Below the pieces are notes generated by a model, which was given only the letters and a program-made list of their open reading frames with translations, was not told the origin of the DNA and searched no databases. 64,000 bases of DNA from positions 39,519 to 103,518 of the IMG/VR virus record IMGVR_UViG_3300031857_000057; one strand, written 5' to 3'. The translations under genes and the position numbers were made by a program. Below, piece after piece: positions 26,920-63,800 of the stretch. The stretch comes from a virus. The number at the start of each line of letters is the position of its first letter. Position 1 is the first letter of the stretch.

Positions 26920-27948
26920 ATGAAAAAAATTATTACGTCAACAATGCTTGGCGTTATATCTGTTATTTTTTCTTCAATGTTTATTCATCCAGGACAAGCA
27001 GCAATCAAACAAAATTCCCCGTGTTCTGTTATTAATTCTAAATATACATCTAAGCAACAGTTATATGTATGCACAAAAAATAAAAATAAGTTAGTATGGA
27101 AAAAATCTAAACTAATTTTTGACAACGTTGTGATACCAACTATTGTTGAAACTACTACGGTATCAATTAAAACAGAAACATATTCTGCAGGGATAAAGGT
27201 AAAAAGTTTTTCACAACAAGCATCAGAAAATTTTTTGCTTTGGGCTGGAAAAAATAGGTCTGTAAAATCTAATCATTTTGTTTATAAAAATTATGACATT
27301 CCAGAAGATATTTTTTTATCTATTAATAAAACAGAGATGGAAGCAAAAGATATTTTTGCAGGGTTTGTAAAACAAGATACCTATAGTTTTTATGGTGGAG
27401 AAGATAAGGATTGGTTTTATACCCACAAAAAATTTATACCACCAGGTAACACATCTAATATTTGTGGAATCCATCCAGATAGCTTGGCAGCATGTGTAAA
27501 TTTAATTGATTCAACATTTTTTAGATTACCTCATGACAATTTTAAACCAAGCAATGCTGCATCAGTTTTAGGCGCTCATGAATATTTTCATTTTGCTCAA
27601 ATGTCGCTTGCAGATCTAACGCCATTTATTAAAAGATCAATTCCTAGATGGTTAGAAGAAGGATCAGCTGAGTTTGTTGGTTATTCAATATTATCAAACA
27701 TTGAATCAAAACCATACGATAGTCTCTTTGCACAAGATAGAAAAATATTTATTGATATAGATTCTGATCCGTACATTAGTGGAAGAATATTTGTTGAATT
27801 TATTGTATCAGAATATGGGTTTGAATCTATATTAAAGATGTTTTATGAATATAGAAACAATAAAAACTTTGATGAAATTTTTTATTCTGTAACAAATAAT
27901 ACGGTACAAGATACTTTAAATAATTTTAAAAAGGTTAAAAATGGATGA
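26920..27948 (+). CDS. Secreted zinc metallopeptidase-like protein
   Basis: Signal peptide; HEYFH and WLEEGSAE (clan MA pattern). Confidence 0.65.
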   Translation: MKKIITSTMLGVISVIFSSMFIHPGQAAIKQNSPCSVINSKYTSKQQLYVCTKNKNKLVWKKSKLIFDNVVIPTIVETTTVSIKTETYSAGIKVKSFSQQASENFLLWAGKNRSVKSNHFVYKNYDIPEDIFLSINKTEMEAKDIFAGFVKQDTYSFYGGEDKDWFYTHKKFIPPGNTSNICGIHPDSLAACVNLIDSTFFRLPHDNFKPSNAASVLGAHEYFHFAQMSLADLTPFIKRSIPRWLEEGSAEFVGYSILSNIESKPYDSLFAQDRKIFIDIDSDPYISGRIFVEFIVSEYGFESILKMFYEYRNNKNFDEIFYSVTNNTVQDTLNNFKKVKNG

Positions 27949-29584
27949 AATCTTTGGTATTTCTTTTAATCATGACTCGTCGTTCTGTGCTTTAAAAGAT
28001 AACGAAATTAAATATTTTTGCAAAGAAGAAAGGGTAACTGGTTTAAAAAGAGATACCCATCCAGCGTTGTCAATGTTTTTGTATAATACTGATTCTCAAA
28101 ACATAAGCGTAGCTTTTTCTTCCCCAACTTTTAGACCAACGGTTGCCGATTCATATTTAAATCTTGTAAAAAAGAAACATAAAGCAATAGATATTATAGA
28201 GTATTCTGATCAACATCACTTAGTACATGCAAATTTAGCATTTTACGATAGTGGCTTTAAAGAAGCTTTAGTTTTTGTAATTGACAGAAATGGATCTGTA
28301 TATTTTGATTCTTGCAGAGAGTCAGAAACAGTATTTATAGCGTCATATCCAAATAATTTTATACCAATATACAAAAACTTTTGGATAGAAAAAAATGATG
28401 CACATCAGCATATTGCAAATTTTAAAAAAGAAAATCCAGATTGCGATATAAATGGAAGATCAATGTTTAGCATTATTAAGGTTTATGAATCTGCTACATC
28501 ATTAATAAAGCAGCATCCTCTTGAAAATGGAAAAGTAATGGGGTTATCAGCATATGGAAATAAAAATATTAATTATCCAAGTTTATTTATAGATAAAATA
28601 ACACCCAATGATTATTATTTTGGGCATGATCAAATTAAAGATATGAAAGCATCTACCAATAGAGATCTTCATCATTTAGCAGTTAATGAGGTACCAAAAG
28701 AAGGATACCAGGTGTATGCAGACTATGCTTGGCAAGTTCAAAAACAAACTCAAGAAGCAGTTGCTGAACTTATTGATAAGTATGTTAGACAGACTGGAAT
28801 AAAAAATGTTTGCATAACTGGAGGATATGGTCTAAATGTTGTGGCAAATCACTATTATATAACTCAATTTCCAGACATTAATTTTTTCTTTGAGCCGCTT
28901 GCTGACGATTCTGGTAATAGTATAGGTGCTGCAATGAAGCTATACAGAGATACAACTCTTGATACAACAATAAAAAAACTAGAGCATACATTTTTTAATG
29001 GATTTAATTATGACTTGAATAATATAAAAGGAATTGATGCATCTATTACAGATGTTGCAAGTCTTATAGCGTCTGGAAAGAGCGTTGCTGTATATAATGG
29101 ATTAGCAGAGGCTGGCCCAAGGGCTCTTGGCAATAGGTCAATTCTTTTTGATCCTAGAGATCCAAATGCCAGGGATAAGGTTAATCAGATTAAAAAAAGA
29201 GAATGGTATAGACCTTTTGCGGCAATGGTTCTTGAAGAAGACGCTAGTACATTTTTTGAAACTGGCAGGGTAGGCAAAAGCGAATTTATGACAATATCTT
29301 TCCCTGTAGTTAAAGAATTTAAACATCTTATTCCTGGTGTTGTTCATGTTGATGATACCTGTAGAATACAAACTATTAGTGATAACAACCCCATAATGCA
29401 ACAATTAATTAGAGAGTTTAAAGATATAGCTGGTATTGGCATTTTATTAAATACAAGTTTTAATTTAGCTGGAAAACCTCTTGTAGAAACACCACAAGAT
29501 GCAATTGATACATTAAATAATAGTACATTAGACTATATCTGGTTTCCAGAAGTTGCAAAACTTGTCAGCTCTGGTATAATATAA
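27941..29584 (+). CDS. Carbamoyltransferase (NodU/CmcH family), copy 1
   Basis: HDSS, EER, HHLVHA, GKVMGLSAYG, EAGPRALGNRSIL, KKREWYRPFA, LLNTSFN. Confidence 0.93.
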   Translation: MDEIFGISFNHDSSFCALKDNEIKYFCKEERVTGLKRDTHPALSMFLYNTDSQNISVAFSSPTFRPTVADSYLNLVKKKHKAIDIIEYSDQHHLVHANLAFYDSGFKEALVFVIDRNGSVYFDSCRESETVFIASYPNNFIPIYKNFWIEKNDAHQHIANFKKENPDCDINGRSMFSIIKVYESATSLIKQHPLENGKVMGLSAYGNKNINYPSLFIDKITPNDYYFGHDQIKDMKASTNRDLHHLAVNEVPKEGYQVYADYAWQVQKQTQEAVAELIDKYVRQTGIKNVCITGGYGLNVVANHYYITQFPDINFFFEPLADDSGNSIGAAMKLYRDTTLDTTIKKLEHTFFNGFNYDLNNIKGIDASITDVASLIASGKSVAVYNGLAEAGPRALGNRSILFDPRDPNARDKVNQIKKREWYRPFAAMVLEEDASTFFETGRVGKSEFMTISFPVVKEFKHLIPGVVHVDDTCRIQTISDNNPIMQQLIREFKDIAGIGILLNTSFNLAGKPLVETPQDAIDTLNNSTLDYIWFPEVAKLVSSGII

Positions 29585-41170: not shown

Positions 41171-42079
41171 TTAATTTACAAGGCTATACATAGTATCTGA
41201 TAAGTGTATATGTTTATGAAAACCCCAATGTCCTTGTAATTTATTAAAATTATAATCAGCTGCATTTTTAAATAATGGATCTTTATTGTATTCTTTATGA
41301 CAGGATAAATCTTTTATTGATAAAGATTTTTCTATAAAAAAATTATTAGAATTAATTTTATTTTGCATTGTTGTTTGAGATGGATCTGATAAAACTTGCT
41401 CCCATATAGTCCAAACAATTTTTATATTATTTGATAAACAATACTGCTCTAACATTTGTATAAACATTAAATTATAAAAAATTGCAAATTCAAATGGTAG
41501 TATTGTGTTTGGATTGTGTGGAGCTTTTGATATTTTTTCAAAATCATGTATATAAGAATTACATTTTTGAATAAATTTTAAATTTGATTTTTTAATATTA
41601 ATATCTAAAGGGCCATCTACTTTACACATTTTATCTTTTACATATGGCATTTCAAATCTTGCTATTGGAAAAACTCCGAATATGTATTGAGGATGGCCAA
41701 ACTCTTTAAAATATTGAAAAGCTTTTATTACTTGACCTTGCATAGAATCTCCAGGGTACGAAAGATTTGCATAGCTCATACTCATTTTATTTGATAGCAT
41801 ATACGGCCAAGTTTGTTCTATATTTAATCCTGTGCCAAATGTATACGAACATCCCAATGTCATAATATTATGACTACCAAATTCTTCTGATCTGTATCCA
41901 ATAGAGTTATACTTATATTCAATAGCATGCTCATTATAAAATACTTTATTGATTAATTTATCATTATATAATTTATTGTTTTCTATCATTTCTGATAATT
42001 TTCTATTAAAAATATTATCAAAATCAAAATCTATTTTTTCAATCATACTATTATTTTTACTCCATAAATACTTTCCCAT
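41171..42079 (-). CDS. SGNH-hydrolase-like protein
   Basis: YNSIGYRS, LGCSYTFG, NLSYPG, C-terminal D...HWG..KH. Confidence 0.6.
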   Translation of the reverse strand: MGKYLWSKNNSMIEKIDFDFDNIFNRKLSEMIENNKLYNDKLINKVFYNEHAIEYKYNSIGYRSEEFGSHNIMTLGCSYTFGTGLNIEQTWPYMLSNKMSMSYANLSYPGDSMQGQVIKAFQYFKEFGHPQYIFGVFPIARFEMPYVKDKMCKVDGPLDINIKKSNLKFIQKCNSYIHDFEKISKAPHNPNTILPFEFAIFYNLMFIQMLEQYCLSNNIKIVWTIWEQVLSDPSQTTMQNKINSNNFFIEKSLSIKDLSCHKEYNKDPLFKNAADYNFNKLQGHWGFHKHIHLSDTMYSLVN

Positions 42080-43461
42080 TCTAATATATCTTTTTTATCA
42101 TTTAGCAATGGTTGAGATTTTACATTTAAGCTTGTATTTAATAGTATTGGTATTCCAGTTAAAGAATACCAGTTGGACAAGACTTCATGTAATCCAGGGT
42201 GCTGTTCTTTGTTTACTGTTTGTACTCTTGATGTGCCGTCTTTGTGAACCACAGACGGTATAAGCTCTGGCTTTAAACACTTAACAGCATATTGCATATA
42301 TGGTGAAGTAAATTTCATATCAAACCATTTGCTAGCATATTCTTCTAAAACAACTGGAGCAAATGGTCTAAAAAGTTCTCTTTTTTTAATTTTATTAACT
42401 TCATCTTTAATATTTGGATCTCTTGGATCTGCTAATATACTTCTATTGCCCAAAGCTCTTGGACCATATTCTGCTCTACCGTTTGCTACTGCAACTATTT
42501 TATTTTTTATTAAAGACGTTATAATTTCATTTACAGGATATTGATTTGATATATCATGGCCAAGATATGGTCCCTTCCAATTTAAGTGTTCACCATACAG
42601 AGCTGCGGCAGCACCCAAAGAAGAGCCAGCATCGCCAGGATTTGGCATAATCCATATATCATCAAATATGCTCCAAAGCTTTGTATTAGCAGAACAGTTA
42701 AGGGCACAACCACCCATAAAAACTAAATTAGTTTTTCCAGTTAGTGATCTTGCCATTCTCATAAAATCTAATAAACGTAACTCATAAACTTTTTGTACTG
42801 CAGCAGCAATATCAAATTTATCTTGTTCTGTTATTAATCCCCAGTCAGATATGCCTTTATGAAAATTATATTTTTGTTTATTAATTGATGGAAAGTATGA
42901 ATTTACCTTATTAAAATATTTATTTGGATCTCCATATGCTGCCATTCCCATCATAATATATTCTTCTTGGTTAGGCATAAGACCTACTAGTTGCGTAAAT
43001 GCAGAATAAAATAAACCAAAGCTGAATGGGTAATTAAATTTTTTGACAGGTTTTATTATATTATTATTTCCAACCCATATTGTTGCGGTATTCCATTCTC
43101 CAATAGCGTCTAATACAACAATTACTGCATCATTAAATTTGCTTGTATAGTATCCTGCTGCTGCATGAGAGTAATGATGATTAAAATATTTAACTGGTAA
43201 ATTAATTGGAATATTTGGTTTCCAGTCCGATGCTCCACCTTTTAAAAATATCCGTGATCTTTTTAGTTGAGGGTGTTCATAATACGCTATATGTGTTGGT
43301 GTACCATAATTGAGCATATCCAAATAGATATCTTTATTGTTATACCAATCATTTTTCTTTTTACTATATCTTTCAGCATGAGCAGCAAAAAGTATATCTC
43401 CATCTTTTACTAAAGATATAGATGCATCATGAGATGTTTCATTAATTCCTAATATAATCAT
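42043..43461 (-). CDS. Carbamoyltransferase (NodU/CmcH family), copy 2
   Basis: HDAS, ERYS, HHYSHA, LDAIGE, MGMAAYG, GGCALN, EYGPRALGNRSIL, LLNTSLN. Confidence 0.93.
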   Translation of the reverse strand: MIILGINETSHDASISLVKDGDILFAAHAERYSKKKNDWYNNKDIYLDMLNYGTPTHIAYYEHPQLKRSRIFLKGGASDWKPNIPINLPVKYFNHHYSHAAAGYYTSKFNDAVIVVLDAIGEWNTATIWVGNNNIIKPVKKFNYPFSFGLFYSAFTQLVGLMPNQEEYIMMGMAAYGDPNKYFNKVNSYFPSINKQKYNFHKGISDWGLITEQDKFDIAAAVQKVYELRLLDFMRMARSLTGKTNLVFMGGCALNCSANTKLWSIFDDIWIMPNPGDAGSSLGAAAALYGEHLNWKGPYLGHDISNQYPVNEIITSLIKNKIVAVANGRAEYGPRALGNRSILADPRDPNIKDEVNKIKKRELFRPFAPVVLEEYASKWFDMKFTSPYMQYAVKCLKPELIPSVVHKDGTSRVQTVNKEQHPGLHEVLSNWYSLTGIPILLNTSLNVKSQPLLNDKKDILEWESIYGVKIIV

Positions 43462-44470: not shown

Positions 44471-44542
44471 AGCCCCCCGTCAGGATTGAACTGACGACCT
44501 TCCGCTTACAAGGCGGATGCTCTACCACTGAGCTAGGGAGGC
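44471..44542 (-). tRNA. tRNA-Thr(UGU)
   Basis: GCCTCCC acceptor; anticodon loop CTTGTAA; T-loop TTCAATC. Confidence 0.93.
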
Positions 44543-44549
44543 TGTAGGG

Positions 44550-45059
44550 CTAAGAGTTTAGTATCTTAGCCAAAGCATTTACGGTTGCTGCAATCCTACC
44601 AATATCACGTAGCTGTTCAACAGTAAATCCTTCTTGTTTTAGTGTTTCATAATGTGCTTTAACACAAAAATGACACTTTCCAATAATAGATGATGCTAAT
44701 GAATATGCCTCAAAATTAGCTTTTGTTGTCCCACCATGGGATGCAATAGCATTCATCCTAAGCTGTGCTGGCAAACCCTTTAGCGCTGGATCATCAGCCA
44801 TTTCAACGTATGGATACCATACATTGTTTTGAGCCATTAGCGCACCAGCGGTCATTGCGGCGTTTTTTTCAACCTCATTAGCTGAACTTGCAGCAATAAA
44901 AGCAATAAGTTTTCCATTACCAGTAGCAAAAGAAGCAGCTAAAGCTAAATGAGTTGCTAATTCTGGATCAACTGTACTTCGGTTAATAACAGAATCAAGG
45001 TTTAGTTTTATATCTTTTGCATACTCAGGCAAAGACTCTTTTAATTGCTCCACCCACAT
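44550..45059 (-). CDS. ahpD: Alkyl hydroperoxide reductase D
   Basis: LPEYAKDIKLNL, MAQNNVWY, CHFCVKAH. Confidence 0.92.
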   Translation of the reverse strand: MWVEQLKESLPEYAKDIKLNLDSVINRSTVDPELATHLALAASFATGNGKLIAFIAASSANEVEKNAAMTAGALMAQNNVWYPYVEMADDPALKGLPAQLRMNAIASHGGTTKANFEAYSLASSIIGKCHFCVKAHYETLKQEGFTVEQLRDIGRIAATVNALAKILNS

Positions 45060-45637
45060 CAGAGTGTTTCTCCGCCAAGCTGTCTATTGCAGGCACAAAG
45101 TTCTCCTGTTTGCAAAGCATCTAGAATTCGCAACGTCTCCTCTGGGCTTCTTCCAACATTAAGATTATTGACCGTAACATGCTGAATAACGTTGTCTGGA
45201 TCAATAATGAAAGTTGCACGAAGAGCAACACCATCATCATTTAGAACACCAAGCTGCTCTGCCAAACCTGTTGGAATATTTTCCGCCTCAGTCCAATATT
45301 TTGAATTATTACGAAGTTGATCTGCAAAAGACCACGAATTTGTTTTCTTTAGATCTTCATGTGCATTTCTCCATGCAATCTTACAAAATTCATTATCTGT
45401 TGATCCTGTTAATAATACTGCATCACGATCATTAAAATCGTTAACTAGCTTATCATATGCGACAATTTCTGTCGGGCAAACAAAGGTAAAATCCTTTGGA
45501 TAATATACAACTACTTTCCACTTTCCTGGAAACCATTGTTCGCTTAGCACTTCAAAAACATCATCAGATGCATCAAGTCTCCCTGGCTTCACACCAACGA
45601 TACGAAATGGTTCTAACTTGTATCCTACTGTTTTCAT
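45059..45637 (-). CDS. ahpC: Peroxiredoxin AhpC
   Basis: YPKDFTFVCPTE, GRSPEETLR, ELCAC. Confidence 0.95.
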   Translation of the reverse strand: MKTVGYKLEPFRIVGVKPGRLDASDDVFEVLSEQWFPGKWKVVVYYPKDFTFVCPTEIVAYDKLVNDFNDRDAVLLTGSTDNEFCKIAWRNAHEDLKKTNSWSFADQLRNNSKYWTEAENIPTGLAEQLGVLNDDGVALRATFIIDPDNVIQHVTVNNLNVGRSPEETLRILDALQTGELCACNRQLGGETL

Positions 45638-45666
45638 CTTTCTCCTTATATAAGTGGGTTTCCCCG

Positions 45667-45739
45667 TATCCCCAACGGGATTTGAACCCGTGTTACCGCC
45701 GTGAAAGGGCGATGTCCTAGGCCTCTAGACGATGGGGAC
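45667..45739 (-). tRNA. tRNA-Glu(UUC)
   Basis: GTCCCCA acceptor; anticodon loop CTTTCAC; TTCAAAT. Confidence 0.93.
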
Positions 45740-45743
45740 TGGG

Positions 45744-45817
45744 CGATCCATATCAGACTTGAACTGACGACCTCTTCCGTGACAGGGAAGCGCTCTAACC
45801 AACTGAGCTAATGGACC
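45744..45817 (-). tRNA. tRNA-Asp(GUC)
   Basis: GGTCCAT acceptor; anticodon loop CTGTCAC. Confidence 0.93.
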
Positions 45818-45821
45818 TCAG

Positions 45822-45894
45822 CTGGTCTGGCAGGGCACGATCCTGCGACATTCGCATTAACAGTGCGACGCTCTACCAACTGAGCTACAGACCA
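45822..45894 (-). tRNA. tRNA-Asn(GUU)
   Basis: TGGTCTG acceptor; anticodon loop CTGTTAA; atypical T-loop ATCGTGC. Confidence 0.85.
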
Positions 45895-45903
45895 ATTTAT
45901 TCA

Positions 45904-45953
45904 ATTATAGCAGTACATTGAGTAACTATCAAGCCACCAATGCCTGCTATAAT
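45904..45953. promoter_or_regulatory. Back-to-back housekeeping-sigma promoters (tRNA/ahpCD operon leftward, leaderless hydrolase gene rightward)
   Basis: Minus strand TTGATA...TGCTATAAT; plus strand TGCTATAAT 6 nt before ATG 45960. Confidence 0.65.
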
Positions 45954-45959
45954 TAAATT

Positions 45960-46715
45960 ATGATGGAATATAATAATTTAGATATAAAAGAATTAAAAAA
46001 TAAAACAGAAATAATATATAAAGATGATGTTATAAAAATATCTCACATAGATAATAACAGCGATTCAGTAGTTATAGTTTTTGCTTATGGATTAAAGCCA
46101 CCAGCCGAACCCAAAGAAAACTTTTACCTTTATACCCGCAATGATAAAAATATCATACATGTTGTTGATCTTATGGTTAGCTGGTTTAATAATTTTACTG
46201 CAGATTTTATTTTAGAAAAAGTAAATCACTTGATTAAAGATAAAAAAATATACCTTTTGGGTATGTCTATGGGGGCATTTAATGCAGTTCAATTTTCTAA
46301 CTATGTGGAGTTTGAAAGGTGCCTTGCTTTTTGTCCACAATTTTTTGTAAAAAAGATGGATATGGATATGTATGATGGATACTTAAGAATTGTTCTTGAA
46401 AGATTAAAAACTTTTAATGTTCACACTTCACAATATTCAAAAGACAAAGAATACTTTATTGTATTTGGGTCTGATGATCAAGAAAAAGCACATTCATATG
46501 ACACAATAAGTTATTGCCATAATGAAAATATAAACGCATCCTTTACAATATTTAATGATTCTCCACATTTAGTTTTAGATTATTTAAATAAAAATGACGG
46601 ACCTGTGTATAAAATTATTGAAAACTTTTTATATGATGATCTTAATACTTTAAAAAGTAAATATTCAAACTACTCTGCAAACTTTTTTCATGCTTCAGAT
46701 AATTTTACTATTTGA
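45960..46715 (+). CDS. Alpha/beta-hydrolase-like protein
   Basis: Nucleophile elbow GMSMG; later D and H candidates. Confidence 0.6.
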   Translation: MMEYNNLDIKELKNKTEIIYKDDVIKISHIDNNSDSVVIVFAYGLKPPAEPKENFYLYTRNDKNIIHVVDLMVSWFNNFTADFILEKVNHLIKDKKIYLLGMSMGAFNAVQFSNYVEFERCLAFCPQFFVKKMDMDMYDGYLRIVLERLKTFNVHTSQYSKDKEYFIVFGSDDQEKAHSYDTISYCHNENINASFTIFNDSPHLVLDYLNKNDGPVYKIIENFLYDDLNTLKSKYSNYSANFFHASDNFTI

Positions 46716-46876
46716 TATTTGTTTTCATTTAGTTTATCTATAATTGCATATGCGATCATGTGGTAGTCCATTTCAATCGCAGAGTTTTCACTGTCTATTT
46801 TATGAACTATTACAGCATCTGCATATGAATGTTGCAGCGCATCAAAGATTATTTCTTTTATCTCTTTATTGTCCAT
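46688..46876 (-). CDS. Hypothetical protein
   Basis: 62 aa ORF filling the gap. Confidence 0.45.
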   Translation of the reverse strand: MDNKEIKEIIFDALQHSYADAVIVHKIDSENSAIEMDYHMIAYAIIDKLNENKYQIVKLSEA

Positions 46877-46925
46877 TGTATTTAATTCTACTACAATTTA
46901 TTTATGCCTATGATATAATGAAATT

Positions 46926-47411
46926 ATGAACATTGCTTTGCTTGGAAATGGGCATGTTGCACAAGCATTAATAAATATTATTGATGAAGAAAAACATGTA
47001 CTAATATCTTATGATAGAAATTCCAATTTTGATGAAATACCATTATCACCAATTATTGATATCGTTATTGATATGCTTGCACATAATAACGAAGCGGTAC
47101 AAATATCAAAAAATATAATAAAAGGATCTTTATATTATGGCAAAAGCGTAATAACTTGTAATAAAAAATTAATGAATATTTATGGGGCAGAATTATGTAA
47201 TTTTGCAAAAGATACAAGTGGTAAGTTTTATATAAATTCTTTAGTAGCTTCTTCTAATACGTTTATTCCATATCCAGAATATCTATCAATCTATAACTTC
47301 ATTGATAATTCTGATAAAGAAAGCATATTTCAATATCGTGGGGCAGGTCCAGAAGAGACCGCTAAATTTATAAATGATGAAATAACAAGGATTGAGACGA
47401 ATGAAAAGTAA
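46926..47411 (+). CDS. Stand-alone Rossmann domain resembling the homoserine dehydrogenase N-terminus
   Basis: NIALLGNGHVA; GKSVITCNKKLM. Confidence 0.55.
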   Translation: MNIALLGNGHVAQALINIIDEEKHVLISYDRNSNFDEIPLSPIIDIVIDMLAHNNEAVQISKNIIKGSLYYGKSVITCNKKLMNIYGAELCNFAKDTSGKFYINSLVASSNTFIPYPEYLSIYNFIDNSDKESIFQYRGAGPEETAKFINDEITRIETNEK

Positions 47412-47979
47412 AGAAATAGCCCCTGGCATTGAGCTGTGGGAAAACTTTTTGACTGATGAAGAGCATGAATATCTTATTAATACTTGCAGATCATTGACTC
47501 AGCAAGATTGGGAAGCAACATATCATAATCAATTTCAATACAATCTAGACAGGGATGGAAAAGAACCTAACAATGAATGGAAAGATAGAATATATCAATT
47601 TCCAAAAGATCATCCAGTTATAAAATCAATAAATAAAAGAATTAACGATTTTGTAACGAAAAAGGGAGAGTATCCAGGATTACTATCTAGGGCTCAAAGA
47701 CATTACCCTGGATCATTTTTAAACGAGCACTATGATTCTGTACAAAGTAAATCTTTGTCACATGCGTTGGTGCTATATCTCAATGACGATTATTCTGGGG
47801 GAGAACTTTATTTTAAAAAATTTAACATTGAGTTTAATCCACCAGTTAAATCTTTGATAAAGTTCCCTTCAACTGAAGACTATATGCATGGAATAAACAT
47901 GGTCAATGATGGTCCAGATAGATTTGTATTGACTAGTTTTATTTGGAACAATCAACAATCAGCAAAAATTGGACGATAA
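47401..47979 (+). CDS. 2OG-Fe(II) oxygenase
   Basis: HYD...LYLNDDYSGGELYF...MHGI...RF. Confidence 0.85.
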   Translation: MKSKEIAPGIELWENFLTDEEHEYLINTCRSLTQQDWEATYHNQFQYNLDRDGKEPNNEWKDRIYQFPKDHPVIKSINKRINDFVTKKGEYPGLLSRAQRHYPGSFLNEHYDSVQSKSLSHALVLYLNDDYSGGELYFKKFNIEFNPPVKSLIKFPSTEDYMHGINMVNDGPDRFVLTSFIWNNQQSAKIGR

Positions 47980-47982
47980 ATT

Positions 47983-48939
47983 TTATTTTATTGATTCTAA
48001 AAATCCTTGTGCTACATGTGCATGATTGTGTATTCCCATATGTTGTTTATCAGAAGCAAAATGCCACAAAATCTTATAATCATCTTTTATTTTAATATTA
48101 AATTGATCTAAACATATGTAATTGCATTTATGATCTTCTTTGTTTAAATCATCAAGACTACATGAAGATCCACAATTTTTAAATTTTTTAAAAGTAAAAA
48201 AATTGTCACGGTTTATACAAAATTCATCACTTGCAAAAAAAACTTCTTCAAATATTTTATCCGTAAGATTATTCCAAGTGCTCCAGACAAATTTTATATC
48301 TAAAAGTTTACACATGGTTGTTAGAATATATAGTGCATTTACATATTGTTTAATAGCTTCATGTGGAGGAATTATATCTTCTACGACGGCAGGAAATTTT
48401 ACTACTGAATCTTTTAGGTATAGCTCTCCAGTTTCAAAATCCATAGTTTTTAATTGTGAACTTGTAATATAAGTTACATCTTTTTTAGATAAAAAATGAT
48501 CTTTTTTGTTTTTATAAAAAATTCTATCTATCGTATGGAAATATCTCAAACAGTCTGGCATAAAAGCAAAAATATATTTTGGCTTACCGACAATATTTAA
48601 ATAACTTATTGCTGATGCGGCTATCTGTTCTGCAGAACCACCACAAATACCTAGGTTTGCCACCTTCATTCCAGTTGTTTTTTCAATAATTGATGACCAA
48701 ATATATTCTTCAGGTACTCCAACACCAAATGTTTGAGAACATCCTATTGCTAAAATATCACATGGAGATCCTTCAACTATATCTTTTAAATCTCTGTATC
48801 TATAATTATTTTGATGATAATCAATTTTTAACAATATGTCTTCTTTATCAAATTTAATATAGTTATGTATAAAATTTTTATTGTATAGTCCAAATGCAAA
48901 ACCAAGATGATCAAATATATTAGTAGACAAATGGTGCAT
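47983..48939 (-). CDS. SGNH-hydrolase-like protein
   Basis: IGCSQTFG, NLGICGGS, C-terminal DKQHMGIHNH. Confidence 0.6.
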   Translation of the reverse strand: MHHLSTNIFDHLGFAFGLYNKNFIHNYIKFDKEDILLKIDYHQNNYRYRDLKDIVEGSPCDILAIGCSQTFGVGVPEEYIWSSIIEKTTGMKVANLGICGGSAEQIAASAISYLNIVGKPKYIFAFMPDCLRYFHTIDRIFYKNKKDHFLSKKDVTYITSSQLKTMDFETGELYLKDSVVKFPAVVEDIIPPHEAIKQYVNALYILTTMCKLLDIKFVWSTWNNLTDKIFEEVFFASDEFCINRDNFFTFKKFKNCGSSCSLDDLNKEDHKCNYICLDQFNIKIKDDYKILWHFASDKQHMGIHNHAHVAQGFLESIK

Positions 48940-49029
48940 GCTTTATTTTTTTCTTTCTTTTAAAAATTTTTAATATTTTATATAAATAATATTGAATTTT
49001 TAATTTCATTTTTAAATTATACCATACAG

Positions 49030-49102
49030 TACCCCTAGTTGGATTTGAACCAACGCTTGGACGATTTTAAGTCGTCTGCCTCTACCGCTGGGCTATAGGG
49101 GC
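49030..49102 (-). tRNA. tRNA-Leu(UAA), short variable loop
   Basis: GCCCCTA acceptor; GACGA-CTTAAAA-TCGTC anticodon arm; 73 nt. Confidence 0.85.
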
Positions 49103-49106
49103 TCAG

Positions 49107-49179
49107 TGTCCCCACTTGGGTTTGAACCAAGGACCCGCAGATTAAAAGTCTGCTGCTCTACCAACTGAGCTATAGGGAC
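49107..49179 (-). tRNA. tRNA-Lys(UUU)
   Basis: GTCCCTA acceptor; anticodon loop CTTTTAA. Confidence 0.93.
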
Positions 49180-49181
49180 AG

Positions 49182-49255
49182 TAGAATGCTTTGGAATTGA
49201 ACCAAACTCCAAGATGCTTATAAGACACCTTCTGACCACCAGCCAGCCGCATTCC
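49182..49255 (-). tRNA. tRNA-Ile(UAU), atypical D-arm
   Basis: GGAATGC/GCATTCT acceptor; GGTGT-CTTATAA-GCATC anticodon arm; TTTGG-TTCAATT-CCAAA T-arm. Confidence 0.7.
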
Positions 49256-49260
49256 AAACG

Positions 49261-49334
49261 TGGAACAGGTAGGACTTGAACCTACGATGACCGAATTATG
49301 AGTTCGGGGCTTTAACCAACTAAGCTACTGTTCC
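49261..49334 (-). tRNA. tRNA-CAU (elongator Met or Ile2)
   Basis: GGAACAG acceptor; CCGAA-CTCATAA-TTCGG anticodon arm. Confidence 0.88.
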
Positions 49335-56081: not shown

Positions 56082-56813
56082 TCACTTTAGTTTCTCCAAT
56101 CTATAGTCAGGTACAAACTCAGGAGTCAAGAATACCTTATGAGTGTCGCATTCCGCAACTGCCTCTAGGTCTACCTCACCCATATAGTGGCATTTATTGC
56201 AAATATTCTCGCCACAGTCATCACAATACTCTAAACAATCATACTCATCACAGTCTCTACAGCGTGATTCATAAGACATATCAGATGTGACTTCACCTGC
56301 CACAAACTCTATCTCCCCACCAAACCCCTGCTCTTCTTCCCAAGTTAGAGTTAGTACAGCAGTTGGATACTGATTAGATAGATGTAACATAGCCTGTACA
56401 GGCGGAGCCCAAGCGGTATCAAATCTATACCCCACCCAGTTATCCACACCGTCTGCTTTGAAGTCAGTCATACAGGTATCACTATCGCCACCTTCATCTG
56501 GCACAGCAACATCCCACTTAGTACCCCATTCACGGTTATTGAAGGAATACCAATCATTACCTGAATAAGGGGTGGGGGAAGAATAATCAGTCTGCTTCTC
56601 ATAAGCCTCTATATCAGTAGGAGCCTTGATATTCCAGAATGAAAATATAGGATTATTATATTTTACAGTCTTAGGTTCAAACTGTTGTGTTTGTACATTC
56701 CAGTTATGCTGGTATGTCCTCTCAAATGGACGATTGAGTTGGTCCTTGATGAGATGAACAGTTTCAGGGTTTGAATCCTGAATCATTAGATTATTGAATA
56801 CCCAGTTTGGCAT
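56082..56813 (-). CDS. DUF1281/YubB-like ferredoxin-fold protein with Cys-rich tail
   Basis: MPNWVFN, WYSFNNREWGTKWD, FDTAWAPP. Confidence 0.65.
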   Translation of the reverse strand: MPNWVFNNLMIQDSNPETVHLIKDQLNRPFERTYQHNWNVQTQQFEPKTVKYNNPIFSFWNIKAPTDIEAYEKQTDYSSPTPYSGNDWYSFNNREWGTKWDVAVPDEGGDSDTCMTDFKADGVDNWVGYRFDTAWAPPVQAMLHLSNQYPTAVLTLTWEEEQGFGGEIEFVAGEVTSDMSYESRCRDCDEYDCLEYCDDCGENICNKCHYMGEVDLEAVAECDTHKVFLTPEFVPDYRLEKLK

Positions 56814-57313: not shown

Positions 57314-57417
57314 TATTTCCCTTTCTGTGAGATATTTTATTATCCCATATTTGGGGGAAAAAAGCAAGGTCAACGTAATAAAGATTTGGGAAAAATCTAA
57401 TCTAGTACGTAATGAGC

Positions 57418-57433
57418 TGTGACAAAAATCACA
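57418..57433. promoter_or_regulatory. CRP/GlxR-type site
   Basis: TGTGA-CAAAAA-TCACA. Confidence 0.7.
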
Positions 57434-57463
57434 CGACTCGGGGCCCCATGATCGCATGAAAAA

Positions 57464-57492
57464 GTGAGCAGTTTATACTCTTGCTCAGGAGT
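57464..57492 (-). ncRNA. 3'-UTR H-type pseudoknot, copy 1
   Basis: ACTC-C-TGAGCA-A-GAGT-ATAAAC-TGCTCA. Confidence 0.75.
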
Positions 57493-57502
57493 TGCGATTT
57501 AC

Positions 57503-58519
57503 TTATGCAATCGCTAGCACATTCTGCACTGTTTGCAATATGCGATTCTTTTCTGCAGTGATAGAAGCATCAAAACCAGAAGCAGCAGCAAGGACGGATT
57601 CATTACTACCACCACGAGCAGAACGATGCCAATCTAATCTTTCGGTTAGAGCATTCATTGCACCCCATGCGGTGTTAGCAATCATCCCGTTATATTCACC
57701 TGTGTAAATATCATTGATGAGGTCAATCTTATTTTGCCACTTAGTGAGAGCGATTTTCTTCTCATCTTCTGGCTTAGGATAAATCGCAAGCACAATGTCG
57801 TTGAACTGTTGCGCTGTGATTTCTTTCTCAATCATGGTCTTAGCCATGAGATCAAAAGCATCCATGTATTTATTAGCAAGACCAAGAGTCTCACGAGCAA
57901 TCTGCACACGACCATTAGCAGATTGTGTGTGACGAATCTTGAATGATTGCTTGATTGCATTCTTGCCACGCTTACTACCCAATGCAAGATTGAGAGTGTT
58001 AGCGCATACAACACGCACTGGCGTGATAGATGCTTGAATAGCAATAGAGCCATCATGTGATGTGTTGATGAGAAGATAAGTCTTGACCTTATCCGAAACA
58101 CCGCTAGGGTCTAGCACTGTCTCACGCTCAAGAGCAAGAGAGCCAAATACTACACGACCACCCTTGATTGAGCCAGCGGTCTCCCATCTACCGCCACCAT
58201 CTAGAATGTTATCGCCAAATGCGAATAGGTCTTCATTCTGCAATGGAACATATCGCTCACCTACAACACCCAAAACATCTGTCTGGTTATTGTTAGTAGG
58301 ATTAGTTCTTACAACATATTGATAAGACTTATCTGATGTAAGGGTGTTAGGAATCTCAACATCTACAAGACGAACATTCCAGTTATTTAGGTTAGCAGCA
58401 GCCAACATTTCTGCGGTGTTCTTTTCTTCTGTAAATACTGTTCCTAAACCATGCCATGCAGGTTCACGGAAAGATGCAAAAGATGCAACACCGTTTTGAG
58501 TTTCTAGTTCATGAGCCAT
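57503..58519 (-). CDS. DUF932-family phage/plasmid protein
   Basis: PAWHGLG, LGVVGERY.PLQN, ETAGSI.GG, NTSHDGS, TPVRVVCANTL, IRHT. Confidence 0.85.
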   Translation of the reverse strand: MAHELETQNGVASFASFREPAWHGLGTVFTEEKNTAEMLAAANLNNWNVRLVDVEIPNTLTSDKSYQYVVRTNPTNNNQTDVLGVVGERYVPLQNEDLFAFGDNILDGGGRWETAGSIKGGRVVFGSLALERETVLDPSGVSDKVKTYLLINTSHDGSIAIQASITPVRVVCANTLNLALGSKRGKNAIKQSFKIRHTQSANGRVQIARETLGLANKYMDAFDLMAKTMIEKEITAQQFNDIVLAIYPKPEDEKKIALTKWQNKIDLINDIYTGEYNGMIANTAWGAMNALTERLDWHRSARGGSNESVLAAASGFDASITAEKNRILQTVQNVLAIA

Positions 58520-58547
58520 TTTATTACCTTTCTGTTAGTTATAGCAA

Positions 58548-58575
58548 TCTTAGCACACAAAATCTGGGAATACAA
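58548..58575 (-). promoter_or_regulatory. Leftward housekeeping-type promoter, representative of the early cassettes
   Basis: TTGTAT-17 nt-TAAGAT with TG extension; similar elements near 56981, 57340, 59424, 60210, 60499, 61374. Confidence 0.65.
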
Positions 58576-58675
58576 ATCGTAAATCGTAAATCGGACATAT
58601 AGGACAAATCGCCCCCGAGTTAATTAGCGGGGGCCCCAGGACACCACCACAGATCCCAGGGCCCAAGATTATTTG

Positions 58676-59134
58676 TTACTCCCATTCCTCCATATCTATG
58701 TCATCAACATAGTGAGAGTTGATAACGGTATCGCCATGGTAAATGTCTACCGTCAAATCATCATTCAAGAAATAACGCAAATCAAATGAATCAACTTCAT
58801 TCAGCGGTACCTCAGTGCTGCCTTCAACTTTGATTGTTGCAACCCAGTTGAGAGTTGTTTTTGCTTCATAGCCAATAATCTCGCAAAGTTGACTAAGAAC
58901 GTCTTCTTTTGAGGTATCAGAGTTATACCAGCCATCTGCAGTTAGATTGTCTTGAATCTGTGCTAACTTTTTTTCAGCGGCTGCTAGGAATGACTCAGTA
59001 AACTGCTTCTTACGAAACATCTCATTGATGTCATGCTTAGTAAGCATATGGTGCACAATCTCTCCAGTAGGTTTTTGCTCCAAGCCCTCCACGAGATAGT
59101 TGACGTACAGTGTTGTTAGTTGTGTGTCTTGCAT
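58676..59134 (-). CDS. Hypothetical protein
   Basis: 152 aa; GAAAGGA RBS. Confidence 0.55.
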   Translation of the reverse strand: MQDTQLTTLYVNYLVEGLEQKPTGEIVHHMLTKHDINEMFRKKQFTESFLAAAEKKLAQIQDNLTADGWYNSDTSKEDVLSQLCEIIGYEAKTTLNWVATIKVEGSTEVPLNEVDSFDLRYFLNDDLTVDIYHGDTVINSHYVDDIDMEEWE

Positions 59135-59397
59135 TATTCCATTTCCTTTCCAAGTTCATCAAACTCTCTAACCTCATCAAGCATAGCGTCAAACTGTTCC
59201 TCAGTCAATAATACTGATGTAACAAGATGTGCTGTTAGTGCTGTTAGATGTGTTGAGTAAACAAACATTTCTCTCATCATTTCTTCTTCAGAAAGAATAT
59301 TCTTATTCTCTAATATGTATTTGACTGCGCTTACTACATCTGGTGAATGTAATGCTTCCTTGCTTGCTTCTGCTATTGCTAACGCTGTTGCGCTCAT
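59134..59397 (-). CDS. Hypothetical protein
   Basis: ACAGAAAGGA RBS before ATG 59397. Confidence 0.55.
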   Translation of the reverse strand: MSATALAIAEASKEALHSPDVVSAVKYILENKNILSEEEMMREMFVYSTHLTALTAHLVTSVLLTEEQFDAMLDEVREFDELGKEME

Positions 59398-59472
59398 TGG
59401 TGGTTTCCTTTCTGTATATACCAAGTTTAGCACTAATCTGGGAAAAATACAACTTATCCCGTAAAGCCCCCG

Positions 59473-59488
59473 TGTGAGAAGGATCACA
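59473..59488. promoter_or_regulatory. CRP/GlxR-type site
   Basis: TGTGA-GAAGGA-TCACA. Confidence 0.7.
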
Positions 59489-59515
59489 AGAGCTCGGGCC
59501 CCATTTGGCGGGGAA

Positions 59516-59544
59516 GTGAGCAGTTTATAGTCATGCTCAGGACT
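59516..59544 (-). ncRNA. 3'-UTR H-type pseudoknot, copy 2
   Basis: AGTC-C-TGAGCA-T-GACT-ATAAAC-TGCTCA. Confidence 0.75.
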
Positions 59545-59551
59545 TTTAGTT

Positions 59552-59719
59552 TTAGTAAGTTTTTACCATAGCGAAACGCTTTGCGCCGTTGCTAAGTGTT
59601 AGACCTACACGAGTTACATTTCTACGGATAGGTGTGAAAGAGTTGATTCTTCCAGTTACTCCCACTTTGCTAGTAGTGAAGAGATCTCCTACCTGATATG
59701 TGTATCCTCCTAGAGTCAT
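59552..59719 (-). CDS. Small beta-barrel-like protein (not in the ORF track)
   Basis: 55 aa, MTLGGYTYQVGDLFTTSKSGVTGRI...; ACAGAAAGGA RBS; paralog of 60289-60459. Confidence 0.65.
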   Translation of the reverse strand: MTLGGYTYQVGDLFTTSKVGVTGRINSFTPIRRNVTRVGLTLSNGAKRFAMVKTY

Positions 59720-59749
59720 TTGCTTTTCCTTTCTGTTAGGTGTTTTGTT

Positions 59750-59783
59750 GTGGGCAGTTTTACCTTAGGTGATACCCAGCACC
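59750..59783 (-). ncRNA. 3'-UTR H-type pseudoknot, copy 3
   Basis: GGTG-C-TGGGTA-T-CACC-TAAGGTAAAAC-TGCCCA. Confidence 0.7.
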
Positions 59784-59792
59784 AAATCTCGT

Positions 59793-60179
59793 TTAGAGAT
59801 AACGAGCGATAGCGTTATATGTAGATGTGGAAACTGTTTCCTCATCCGTCATTTTGAGAATACGAATAGCGTTCTCAAGTTCCTCTACCATCTCGTTATA
59901 TGAGTGGCGGTGGATTTGCTCATGCTCACGCTCAGGTTGCTCTGGAAAATCAAGCCCATTGAGGTCTAAGTCAAAATCAACATTGAGATTATTATTCCAA
60001 GCACGATAACTTGTGCGAAGATTTTTAGCCTTAGCGATTTGTGATACGGCTAACTTAGCAACTTCCTTTTCCCACTTTTCAGTAGCCTTCTTATACTTAG
60101 CCTCGTTCTCATCTTGCTTAGCATAGTCAGCCTTGATTTGTGCCAACTTAGTTTCTAAGGCTTTGATAACCTTAGCCAT
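59793..60179 (-). CDS. Helical hypothetical protein
   Basis: 128 aa; ACAGAAAGGGA RBS. Confidence 0.6.
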   Translation of the reverse strand: MAKVIKALETKLAQIKADYAKQDENEAKYKKATEKWEKEVAKLAVSQIAKAKNLRTSYRAWNNNLNVDFDLDLNGLDFPEQPEREHEQIHRHSYNEMVEELENAIRILKMTDEETVSTSTYNAIARYL

Positions 60180-60240
60180 TTGTTTTTCCCTTTCTGTTTG
60201 GTGGTATAAATCTTAGCATTTTGCCAAGATAAAATCAAGT

Positions 60241-60271
60241 TGAGCAGTTTATCCTCCACTTGCTCAGGTGG
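60241..60271 (-). ncRNA. 3'-UTR H-type pseudoknot, copy 4
   Basis: CCAC-C-TGAGCA-A-GTGG-AGGATAAAC-TGCTCA. Confidence 0.75.
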
Positions 60272-60288: not shown

Positions 60289-60459
60289 CTAGTTAGACTT
60301 GTTCTTCCAAGTAGTCCAACGAACCTTACCCTCAACATCCAACTTCACACGAACTGTGTTCTTGTCTGTTGGGATGATTTCCTTGATGATACCTGTGACC
60401 TTGCTCTTTTGAGAGGTGTAGGTATCGCCTACCTTGTAGGTTGCTACTGATACTGCCAT
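60289..60459 (-). CDS. Small beta-barrel-like protein
   Basis: TYKVGDTYTSQKSKVTGII; AAGGAG RBS. Confidence 0.6.
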   Translation of the reverse strand: MAVSVATYKVGDTYTSQKSKVTGIIKEIIPTDKNTVRVKLDVEGKVRWTTWKNKSN

Positions 60460-60636
60460 TTTTCTTTCTCCTTTGTTTGTTGTTGTTGCCATAGTATTAT
60501 TATCGCATTATTCATTTGTGTCCGTCAAGTTATTTCTGATATTTCTCATATTTTGAGATTATTCACTTGTTGTCCCCCAAGCCCAATAGCATGAGGAATA
60601 TTAGACCTAGGATTACTACTTCTAGCATAGCCCCCC

Positions 60637-61350: not shown

Positions 61351-61476
61351 GGTGTCCCTTTCTGAATAAACCAAGCTTAGCAGATTCGGGAAAAAATATC
61401 AACTTGCCGTAAATAGGTGTTTCTACGTAAAGGGGGCAAAACGGACAAAACGGCTCGGGGCCCCTTTGGGGAGCTT

Positions 61477-63460: not shown

Positions 63461-63696
63461 AGGGCACTTAGGATTAGTCTTAGCAAAGTGGCGAATAAGC
63501 ACCCTTCGCTCAAAGTTAGTTAGTCCAAATACTGAACGGATACCCCCGTCATTATATTCGTGGATAAGTATGTCTAGCCTTTTTTCAGTGAGCATTTTTT
63601 GCCCCTTTCTTTTCTGTTACTCTGTAAGTATCTCACACACTCAGAAAAATATCAAATCCAAAATGCGATCAAAACGGACATTTTGAAAAAAAGTTT

Positions 63697-63712
63697 TGTG
63701 AGAAAACTCACA
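63697..63712. promoter_or_regulatory. CRP/GlxR-type site
   Basis: TGTGA-GAAAAC-TCACA. Confidence 0.7.
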
Positions 63713-63800
63713 TCGTACGTAAACCGACAAAACGGACATTTCGCCCTCGGGCGCTTTCGGCGCATTGTCAAATCAACACGCCGATTTTTTTATTTATTTT

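Follow-up and report, generated by a model that had tools for sequence, protein, structure and literature searches.

A 64,000-nucleotide (nt) stretch of phage DNA (positions 39,519 to 103,518 of the IMG/VR virus record IMGVR_UViG_3300031857_000057; hereafter the window) carries, on its minus strand, four copies of a compact element, each shortly after the stop codon of an open reading frame (ORF). The phage has a low G+C content (about 36%) and is a relative of the Streptomyces Stanwilliamsviridae, with a DnaE polymerase that is 53% identical. Read on the minus strand, the copies follow the template S1a(4)-C-S2a(6)-W-S1b(4)-N(2-7)AAAC-S2b(6), in which the strands (a and b) of stem 1 (S1) and stem 2 (S2) are linked by a single-base loop 1 (L1), a junction base (W) and a loop 3 (L3) ending in AAAC. 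An earlier note, made from the letters of the window, had described this layout; the stems and the placement shortly after stop codons (with spacers of 10, 7, 9 and 17 nt) were confirmed here, as was the invariance of the L1 C and the AAAC in all four copies (Table 1). The S2 of copy 3 differs from that of the other copies by one compensatory change from A-U to G-C and one change from C-G to U-G. A pattern search and a relaxed structural scan of the whole 103.5-kilobase virus record found no fifth copy. We conclude that the four copies are typical members of a large, uncatalogued class of pseudoknots.

Table 1 Pseudoknot copies and neighbouring features in the window (aa, amino acids)
Feature	Position	Strand	Description
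Pseudoknot copy 1	57465-57492	minus	S1 ACUC/GAGU; S2 UGAGCA/UGCUCA; 10 nt past stop codon 57503-57505 (DUF932 ORF)
Copy 1 parts	S1a 57489-57492; L1 C 57488; S2a 57482-57487; junction A 57481; S1b 57477-57480; L3 57471-57476; S2b 57465-57470	minus	
Pseudoknot copy 2	59517-59544	minus	S1 AGUC/GACU; S2 UGAGCA/UGCUCA; 7 nt past stop codon 59552-59554 (55-aa ORF)
Copy 2 parts	S1a 59541-59544; L1 59540; S2a 59534-59539; junction U 59533; S1b 59529-59532; L3 59523-59528; S2b 59517-59522	minus	
Pseudoknot copy 3	59751-59783	minus	S1 GGUG/CACC; variant S2 UGGGUA/UGCCCA; 9 nt past stop codon 59793-59795 (128-aa ORF)
Copy 3 parts	S1a 59780-59783; L1 59779; S2a 59773-59778; junction U 59772; S1b 59768-59771; L3 59757-59767 (11 nt); S2b 59751-59756	minus	
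Pseudoknot copy 4	60241-60271	minus	S1 CCAC/GUGG; S2 UGAGCA/UGCUCA; 17 nt past stop codon 60289-60291 (67-aa ORF)
Copy 4 parts	S1a 60268-60271; L1 60267; S2a 60261-60266; junction A 60260; S1b 60256-60259; L3 60247-60255 (9 nt); S2b 60241-60246	minus	
ORF 5′ of copy 1	57503-58519	minus	338 aa, DUF932 / phrog_1221
ORF 5′ of copy 2	59552-59719	minus	55 aa, paralogue of the ORF before copy 4
ORF 5′ of copy 3	59793-60179	minus	128 aa, no family matched
ORF 5′ of copy 4	60289-60492	minus	67 aa, or 56 aa from the second ATG
G+C-rich repeated element, three intergenic copies	57418-57449; 59473-59504; 61435-61466	minus	GGGGCCCC palindrome, then TGTGA...TCACA hairpin
Promoter-like repeat, three copies	57384-57412; 59436-59464; 63694-63722	minus	has TTTTTCCCAGATT or a variant, 5′ of a conserved ACAGAAAGG ribosome-binding region

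Nested folding finds S2 alone at the window copies, with unremarkable energies (z of about -1.4 to +0.6), so the case for the fold rests on comparative data. We aligned 72 distinct copies of fixed length, picked with a pattern that leaves S1 free. The two variable inner pairs of S1 are formed in all 72, in four and three Watson–Crick types; the closing pair is C-G in 71 copies and G-C in one, and the outer pair is formed in 54. None of 500 shuffles attained the covariation score of 0.345 (0.065 in shuffles), and the proportion of paired cells falls from 97.5% to 24–38% when the partners are slid. For S2, we accepted any 6-base-pair (bp) complement in the right frame across 1.17 megabases of fetched loci and obtained 121 matches, compared with none in reversed sequence. 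Twenty of these have a non-consensus S2 with compensatory changes at positions 2–5; the S2 variants include UGGACA/UGUCCA, UAGACA/UGUCUA, UGGCCA/UGGCCA, UAAGCA/UGCUUA and UGAGUA/UACUCA. When S2 was left free and S1 alone was required, the non-consensus candidates were bimodal, with 5–6 S2 pairs in 67, compared with 4 in the reversed control. The outermost U-A pair of S2 is optional. These results bear out the claim that covariation evidences a conserved RNA fold, and we conclude that the element is, as judged from the covariation of both stems, a conserved H-type RNA pseudoknot.

G-U pairs are frequent in the S2 variants and correspond to A-C mismatches on the opposite strand, which identifies the folding molecule as the sense RNA. 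The same mismatches count against an element that acts in DNA as a recombination, replication or protein-binding site, as might be supposed from the inverted repeat that S2 forms (TGAGCA ... TGCTCA). The orientation of the copies also tracks the coding strand, and S1 interlocks with S2 in a way that duplex DNA could not use; we consider a DNA-level element extremely improbable.

When IMG/VR was searched for both conserved halves, leaving S1 free, matches came from at least 119 contigs; 85 of 136 matches have a perfect 4-bp S1 and 35 more have three pairs. A stricter pattern, applied to one genome per GTDB species, gave at least 117 matches where about 2 are expected by chance, and S1 is paired in 114 of the 117 that were listed. 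The listed matches come from Saccharibacteria and other Patescibacteria, Aminicenantes, Thermodesulfobacteriota and other deltaproteobacteria, Anaerolineae, Clostridia, Lactobacillaceae, Nocardia, Bacteroidota, cyanobacteria and several proteobacterial classes. In bacterial genomes the motif occurs once or twice, and phage-like contigs have it in clusters of four; within the Saccharimonadales, 30 of 151 sampled genomes have a match. The motif is present in none of the three closest cultured relatives by DnaE, the Streptomyces phages BillNye, Coruscant and Braelyn, and a BLAST search of the region against GenBank phages returned no near relatives.

With a scanner that relies on structure alone, we obtained 309 distinct copies, in 215 loci of the fetched DNA, compared with 12 in reversed controls. 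The family has an S1 of 3–4 bp that is free in sequence except for a conserved C-G closing pair (the commonest cores are GUC/GAC in 83 copies, GAC/GUC in 65 and AUC/GAU in 51); an L1 of a single C; an S2 of 5–6 bp, mostly UGAGCA/UGCUCA; one junction base, U or A in 289 of the 309; and an L3 that ends in AAAC and is 6 nt long in 262. In a group of viral contigs related to one another (L006, L007, L040, L049, L054, L078, L109, L112 and L120), the sequence pattern is present and the S1 register fails; these contigs would fit a variant with a 3-bp GAC/GUC S1, no junction base and a longer L3.

None of the four window sites has an Rfam 15 match at E values of up to 10, and a scan of the window at Rfam gathering scores returned only tRNAs. 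We found no earlier description of the pseudoknot in the full-text literature, which does not prove that none exists. With several hundred copies in the fetched DNA, in phages and at least a dozen bacterial phyla, the element represents an abundant structured RNA class that has no Rfam entry.

The position of the element is tied to the upstream ORF. This ORF is clear for 194 copies, and in 73 of them the first base of the stop codon is 13 or 14 nt ahead of S2a, which corresponds to a spacer of 5–6 nt to S1a. Only 5 of the 194 are nearer to the stop codon than this, and the frequency falls smoothly at larger distances; about 40% of copies, including copy 4 of the window, are more than 11 nt from the stop codon. 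The distance to the next start codon is far looser, and downstream starts are at least 12 nt away (31 nt past copy 3 and 61 nt past copy 4, both of which are intercistronic). The six bases 3′ of the knot are poor in G (3–11%, compared with 21% overall).

Some copies adjoin sites of RNA processing. The 5′ end of a tRNA gene on the same strand lies 3–13 nt past 21 copies, and none of the collected copies has a tRNA within 60 nt upstream. At one locus (L130:7271-7617, minus strand), two units, each consisting of an ORF end, a pseudoknot and a type III hammerhead ribozyme, are about 270 nt apart. Rfam scores these hammerheads at 50.5 and 41.2 bits, the cleavage site is 5 nt past the last base of the knot, and hammerhead stem III overlaps the final base or bases of the knot; three more knot–hammerhead cases were seen at the level of regular expressions only. 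In seven prophage-like loci of Clostridia (L183:887-1071, L145, L154, L185, L208, L234 and L201), the DUF2800 RNA motif (RF02960) starts immediately after the knot and may therefore have an unannotated 5′ module.

A further context is found in free-standing chromosomal units of Deltaproteobacteria, Aminicenantes, Anaerolineae and Actinobacteria (L195:1023-1085, plus strand; also L166, L178, L199, L225, L230, L152, L142, L163, L193, L202, L171, L144 and L135). These comprise a promoter, a strong Shine–Dalgarno sequence, a 20-codon ORF that contains Cys codons and the pseudoknot, followed in many loci by a terminator-like hairpin with a U-run. Substitutions at third codon positions of the 20-codon ORF are synonymous, its product matches no Pfam or NCBIfam family, and in most loci its UGA stop codon forms the first three bases of S2a. 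The unit has no downstream gene, and its neighbours are housekeeping genes (LpxC, HTH_17 and SerRS). The Cys-rich coding stretch prompted us to consider the end of a TnpB omega-RNA, which was rejected: the stretch is a free-standing ORF that has a promoter and a terminator of its own, and there is no transposase nearby. Selenocysteine recoding of the UGA in S2a was also rejected, as the downstream frame is unconserved and in some loci runs into a further stop codon after two codons.

Coupling to the stop codon, severing from the downstream RNA by tRNA or hammerhead processing, and units without a downstream gene together show that the element belongs to the upstream ORF. As the earlier note had held, the element is not a standard intrinsic terminator: a U-run (CUUUUUC) directly follows copy 1 and none of the other three window copies, and terminator-like sites are not enriched downstream of the family (11 of 302 copies, compared with 144 of 1500 control ORF ends). 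We also found no minus-strand terminator-like site between positions 56800 and 61000 of the window.

The earlier note had offered three functions: a nuclease-blocking end, a protein- or ligand-binding element, or a processing signal for early mRNAs. The first fits the context best, given the coupling to stop codons, the 3–13 nt to RNase P sites, the 5 nt to hammerhead cleavage and the location at ends of transcription units. The G-poor 3′ flank also speaks for it, as do the 67 copies (about a quarter of those with a nearby downstream ORF) that face a convergent ORF. The restriction to early mRNAs does not stand, as copies occur in diverse phages and in chromosomal loci of many phyla. We tentatively favour, with a confidence a little short of an even balance, a compact roadblock that ends up as the protected 3′ terminus of the upstream mRNA; structure and placement are as observed above, and it is the resistance to nucleases that we infer.

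The fold would form in the sense transcript and act in cis on the ORF just upstream. By analogy with the solved luteoviral and gene 32 knots, the L1 C would lie in the major groove of S2 and the AAAC in the minor groove of S1, giving a small, rigid triplex knot that 3′-to-5′ exonucleases would be unable to pass. Once the transcript is cut or ends downstream (by RNase P at a tRNA, by a hammerhead, by another endonuclease or at the end of the unit), trimming would halt at the knot, and the upstream cistron would retain an intact stop codon and a protected 3′ end, stay translatable and avoid becoming a non-stop message. After processing, the upstream message would end in the knot plus 3–13 nt or, in the hammerhead case, the knot plus 5 nt and a cyclic phosphate. 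PNPase, RNase II and RNase R would need a longer tail than 3–7 nt. A knot that is cut off from the downstream RNA at a tRNA or hammerhead could serve only the RNA upstream.

The knot would be placed as near to the stop codon as a terminating ribosome permits, so that no melting by the ribosome would be needed. With the stop codon in the A site, a 5-nt spacer would leave about 12 nt between the first S1 pair and the first P-site base, so that this pair would be just outside the helicase site of the ribosome as published mapping places it, and a terminating ribosome would touch the knot without having to melt it. The hard 5-nt limit would then be a natural read-out of the footprint of the terminating ribosome.

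Should it act as a nuclease roadblock, the element would be the equivalent in prokaryotes of the viral exoribonuclease-resistant RNAs (xrRNAs), would explain stable processed messages in compact phage operons and in mRNA–tRNA and mRNA–ribozyme co-transcripts, and could serve in synthetic biology as a portable 28-nt stabiliser or insulator of mRNA ends. Its range, from Saccharibacteria to phages of Actinobacteria, would imply either a conserved mechanical principle or the horizontal spread of an RNA module. It is possible, although on balance doubtful, that the family constitutes the first class of exoribonuclease-resistant RNA to be widespread in DNA phages and bacteria: a 28-nt knot with a coremin-like core that acts as a universal gene-end punctuation and sets the 3′ (or 5′) ends of mRNAs and their segmental stability.

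Several observations weigh against a 3′ cap. The nested folding energy is modest. Among copies with a nearby downstream ORF, 187 (74%) are intercistronic, a setting that would fit a barrier facing in either direction. The bacterial units with the 20-codon ORF already have a terminator hairpin to protect the 3′ end, and their stop codon lies inside S2a, so that ribosomes have to melt the knot. In Saccharibacteria (L139:3755-3830, plus strand; also L124, L147, L160, L192, L228 and L240), a 14-codon ORF runs across S1a, S2a and S1b to a stop codon in L3, and the next gene begins about 20 nt past the knot; this locus may be a translation-sensitive leader. The analogy with coremin, the nearest characterised relative, may also point the other way, as coremin blocks enzymes that arrive from the 5′ side.

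Coremin (xrRNA-C), found in beny-, cucumo- and other RNA viruses, and its Watson–Crick variant (xrRNA-WCC) are the closest known structures to the family (PMC10520033, PMC10321173). Coremin likewise has a 4-bp first hairpin that is closed by C-G and is mostly GUC/GAC (also the commonest S1 core here), a single essential C as the first loop base, and an A-rich linker that ends in AAAC and is followed by a strand that pairs with the loop, in about 28 nt overall. It too lies in 3′ untranslated regions and intergenic regions, with A-minor and major-groove contacts predicted. The comparison with the xrRNA-WCC is mixed: both have a canonical antiparallel helix between loop and spacer (S2 here) and a single L1 base, essential there and invariant here, but this base is G in the xrRNA-WCC and C in the family, and the helix has 3 bp in the former and 5–6 in the latter.

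The family is nevertheless not a member of the coremin class. The coremin loop rule, YGAD (4 nt) or YGNNAD (6 nt), fails here, where the loop has 8 nt (C-UGAGCA-W) and its second base is U rather than G. For the spacer the comparison is mixed: the conserved one of coremin is 8–10 nt long and ends in AAAC-UAC, and here a 6-nt L3 of the form NN-AAAC, seen in 262 of the 309 copies, is followed by a 6-nt strand complementary to the loop. The S2 equivalent in coremin consists of three non-canonical or three Watson–Crick pairs, compared with a canonical helix of 5–6 bp. Coremin also requires a second hairpin directly downstream for resistance to Xrn1 (PMC10520033, PMC10321173), and no conserved hairpin was seen here in the G-poor flank. 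Its hosts are RNA viruses, whereas the family occurs in DNA phages and bacteria, which have no Xrn1, and the context of the family suggests service to the upstream rather than the downstream RNA.

Coremin stalls a 5′-to-3′ exoribonuclease (Xrn1) one base before its hairpin, also halts scanning ribosomes and promotes -1 frameshifting; its Watson–Crick variant is a canonical pseudoknot (PMC10520033, PMC10321173). Together with the shared core and the intercistronic majority, this suggests a coremin-like barrier at each cistron end against machines that arrive from the 5′ side (RNase J, 5′-end-dependent RNase E scanning or Rho), which would insulate the downstream RNA or prevent polarity. We regard such a barrier as rather unlikely. 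Processing detaches the copies that directly precede tRNAs and hammerheads from the downstream RNA, and copies also occur at unit ends where no gene follows. The spacing is tight to the stop codon upstream and loose to the downstream start, and the second hairpin that coremin needs is absent. Some matches are in contigs binned to beta- and gammaproteobacteria, which generally lack RNase J, although misbinning is possible.

The sharp mode at 5–6 nt, with its hard lower limit, raises the alternative of an element directed at the ribosome: with the stop codon in the A site, the knot would lie at the mRNA entry site and could alter how ribosomes terminate, are recycled or reinitiate, or stop them from sliding after termination, so that neighbouring cistrons would be uncoupled. 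This spacing is that of frameshift-stimulating pseudoknots, short ORFs end inside the knot in two bacterial contexts (in S2a for the 20-codon ORF and in L3 for the 14-codon ORF), and coremin itself stalls ribosomes. However, the many copies more than 11 nt from the stop codon, such as copy 4 at 17 nt, do not fit, and the frame of the UGA inside S2a agrees with that of the upstream ORF no more often than chance predicts; this UGA is the stop codon of that ORF in only 7 of 194 copies. At the window copies, neither a slippery heptamer nor an extended ORF in another frame is present. We consider a ribosome-directed role unlikely.

Compact H-type knots with a short L1, an A-rich L3 in the minor groove of S1 and a spacer of 5–8 nt to the decoding site are known as -1 frameshift signals of luteovirids (beet western yellows virus type). 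These follow a slippery heptamer, whereas the family follows a stop codon, has no overlapping -1 ORF and has a longer S2 that is conserved in sequence. A -1 frameshift signal was rejected for the window copies, each of which is preceded by a stop codon instead of a slippery site; the next genes have their own ribosome-binding sites.

The L1 C, the AAAC and the sequence of S2 are nearly invariant across phyla, and the unpaired bases among them could provide a small molecule or a conserved protein with a binding pocket or recognition surface; alternatively, the element could be a small self-cleaving or processing signal. The motif adjoins hammerheads and the 5′ edge of the DUF2800 RNA motif, and its size and layout resemble those of the preQ1-I aptamer (RF00522), which is likewise a pseudoknot, of about 30 nt, and has an A-rich 3′ loop. 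The four window sites nevertheless match neither this nor any other Rfam riboswitch or ribozyme model, and the family does not lie in the 5′ leaders of queuosine genes and has a much longer S2 and a 1-nt junction. Neighbouring genes have no common function, Shine–Dalgarno sequences are not sequestered, downstream starts are 12 nt or more away, a position after an ORF is unusual for a riboswitch, and the invariant bases are those expected of structural base triples. We consider binding or catalysis quite improbable.

Three specific candidates were rejected. In a hammerhead reading of CUGAGCA, a C occupies the essential G8 position, GAAA is absent and there is no Rfam match; a pistol-like reading leaves no room for P2 and P3; and a mimic of the tRNA acceptor end is not supported by the 16 of 117 copies that are followed by CCA, as about 10 are expected from composition.

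Two other known systems resemble the family in setting or in shape. Repetitive extragenic palindromic (REP) elements and other intercistronic stem-loops that stabilise polycistronic mRNAs are likewise repeated structured elements after stop codons, for which a block to 3′ exonucleases and a role in segmental stability have been proposed; REP elements are simple palindromic hairpins of enterobacteria and their relatives, whereas the family is a pseudoknot with invariant loop bases that spans phyla and phages. The autoregulatory pseudoknot of T-even gene 32 is also an H-type knot in phage mRNA, with a 1-nt L1 that spans an S2 of 6–7 bp, an L3 of 6–7 nt and unstructured RNA downstream. It is present as a single copy in one 5′ leader, where it nucleates the binding of gp32, in contrast to the many copies described here, which follow unrelated ORFs in phages and bacteria that are themselves unrelated.

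Within the window, two further repeats accompany the pseudoknots (Table 1). Two of the three copies of a G+C-rich element, which may be a terminator or an operator, come shortly after pseudoknot copies 1 and 2, and each is followed by a copy of a promoter-like repeat, which had no match in a scan for the sigma-70 consensus. This arrangement suggests that copies 1 and 2 close transcription units. The products of the 55-aa and 67-aa ORFs are paralogues (40% identity, E = 5e-10), and each ORF precedes its own pseudoknot copy, with an S1 that is wholly different between the two. Homologues that start with MTLG are located after pseudoknots in two other contigs (L190 and L203). Elsewhere in the window, a cluster of seven tRNA genes (44471-49334, minus strand) has a pseudoknot copy before none of the seven, and two genes encode Nol-like carbamoyltransferases (27941-29584, plus strand, and 42043-43461, minus strand).

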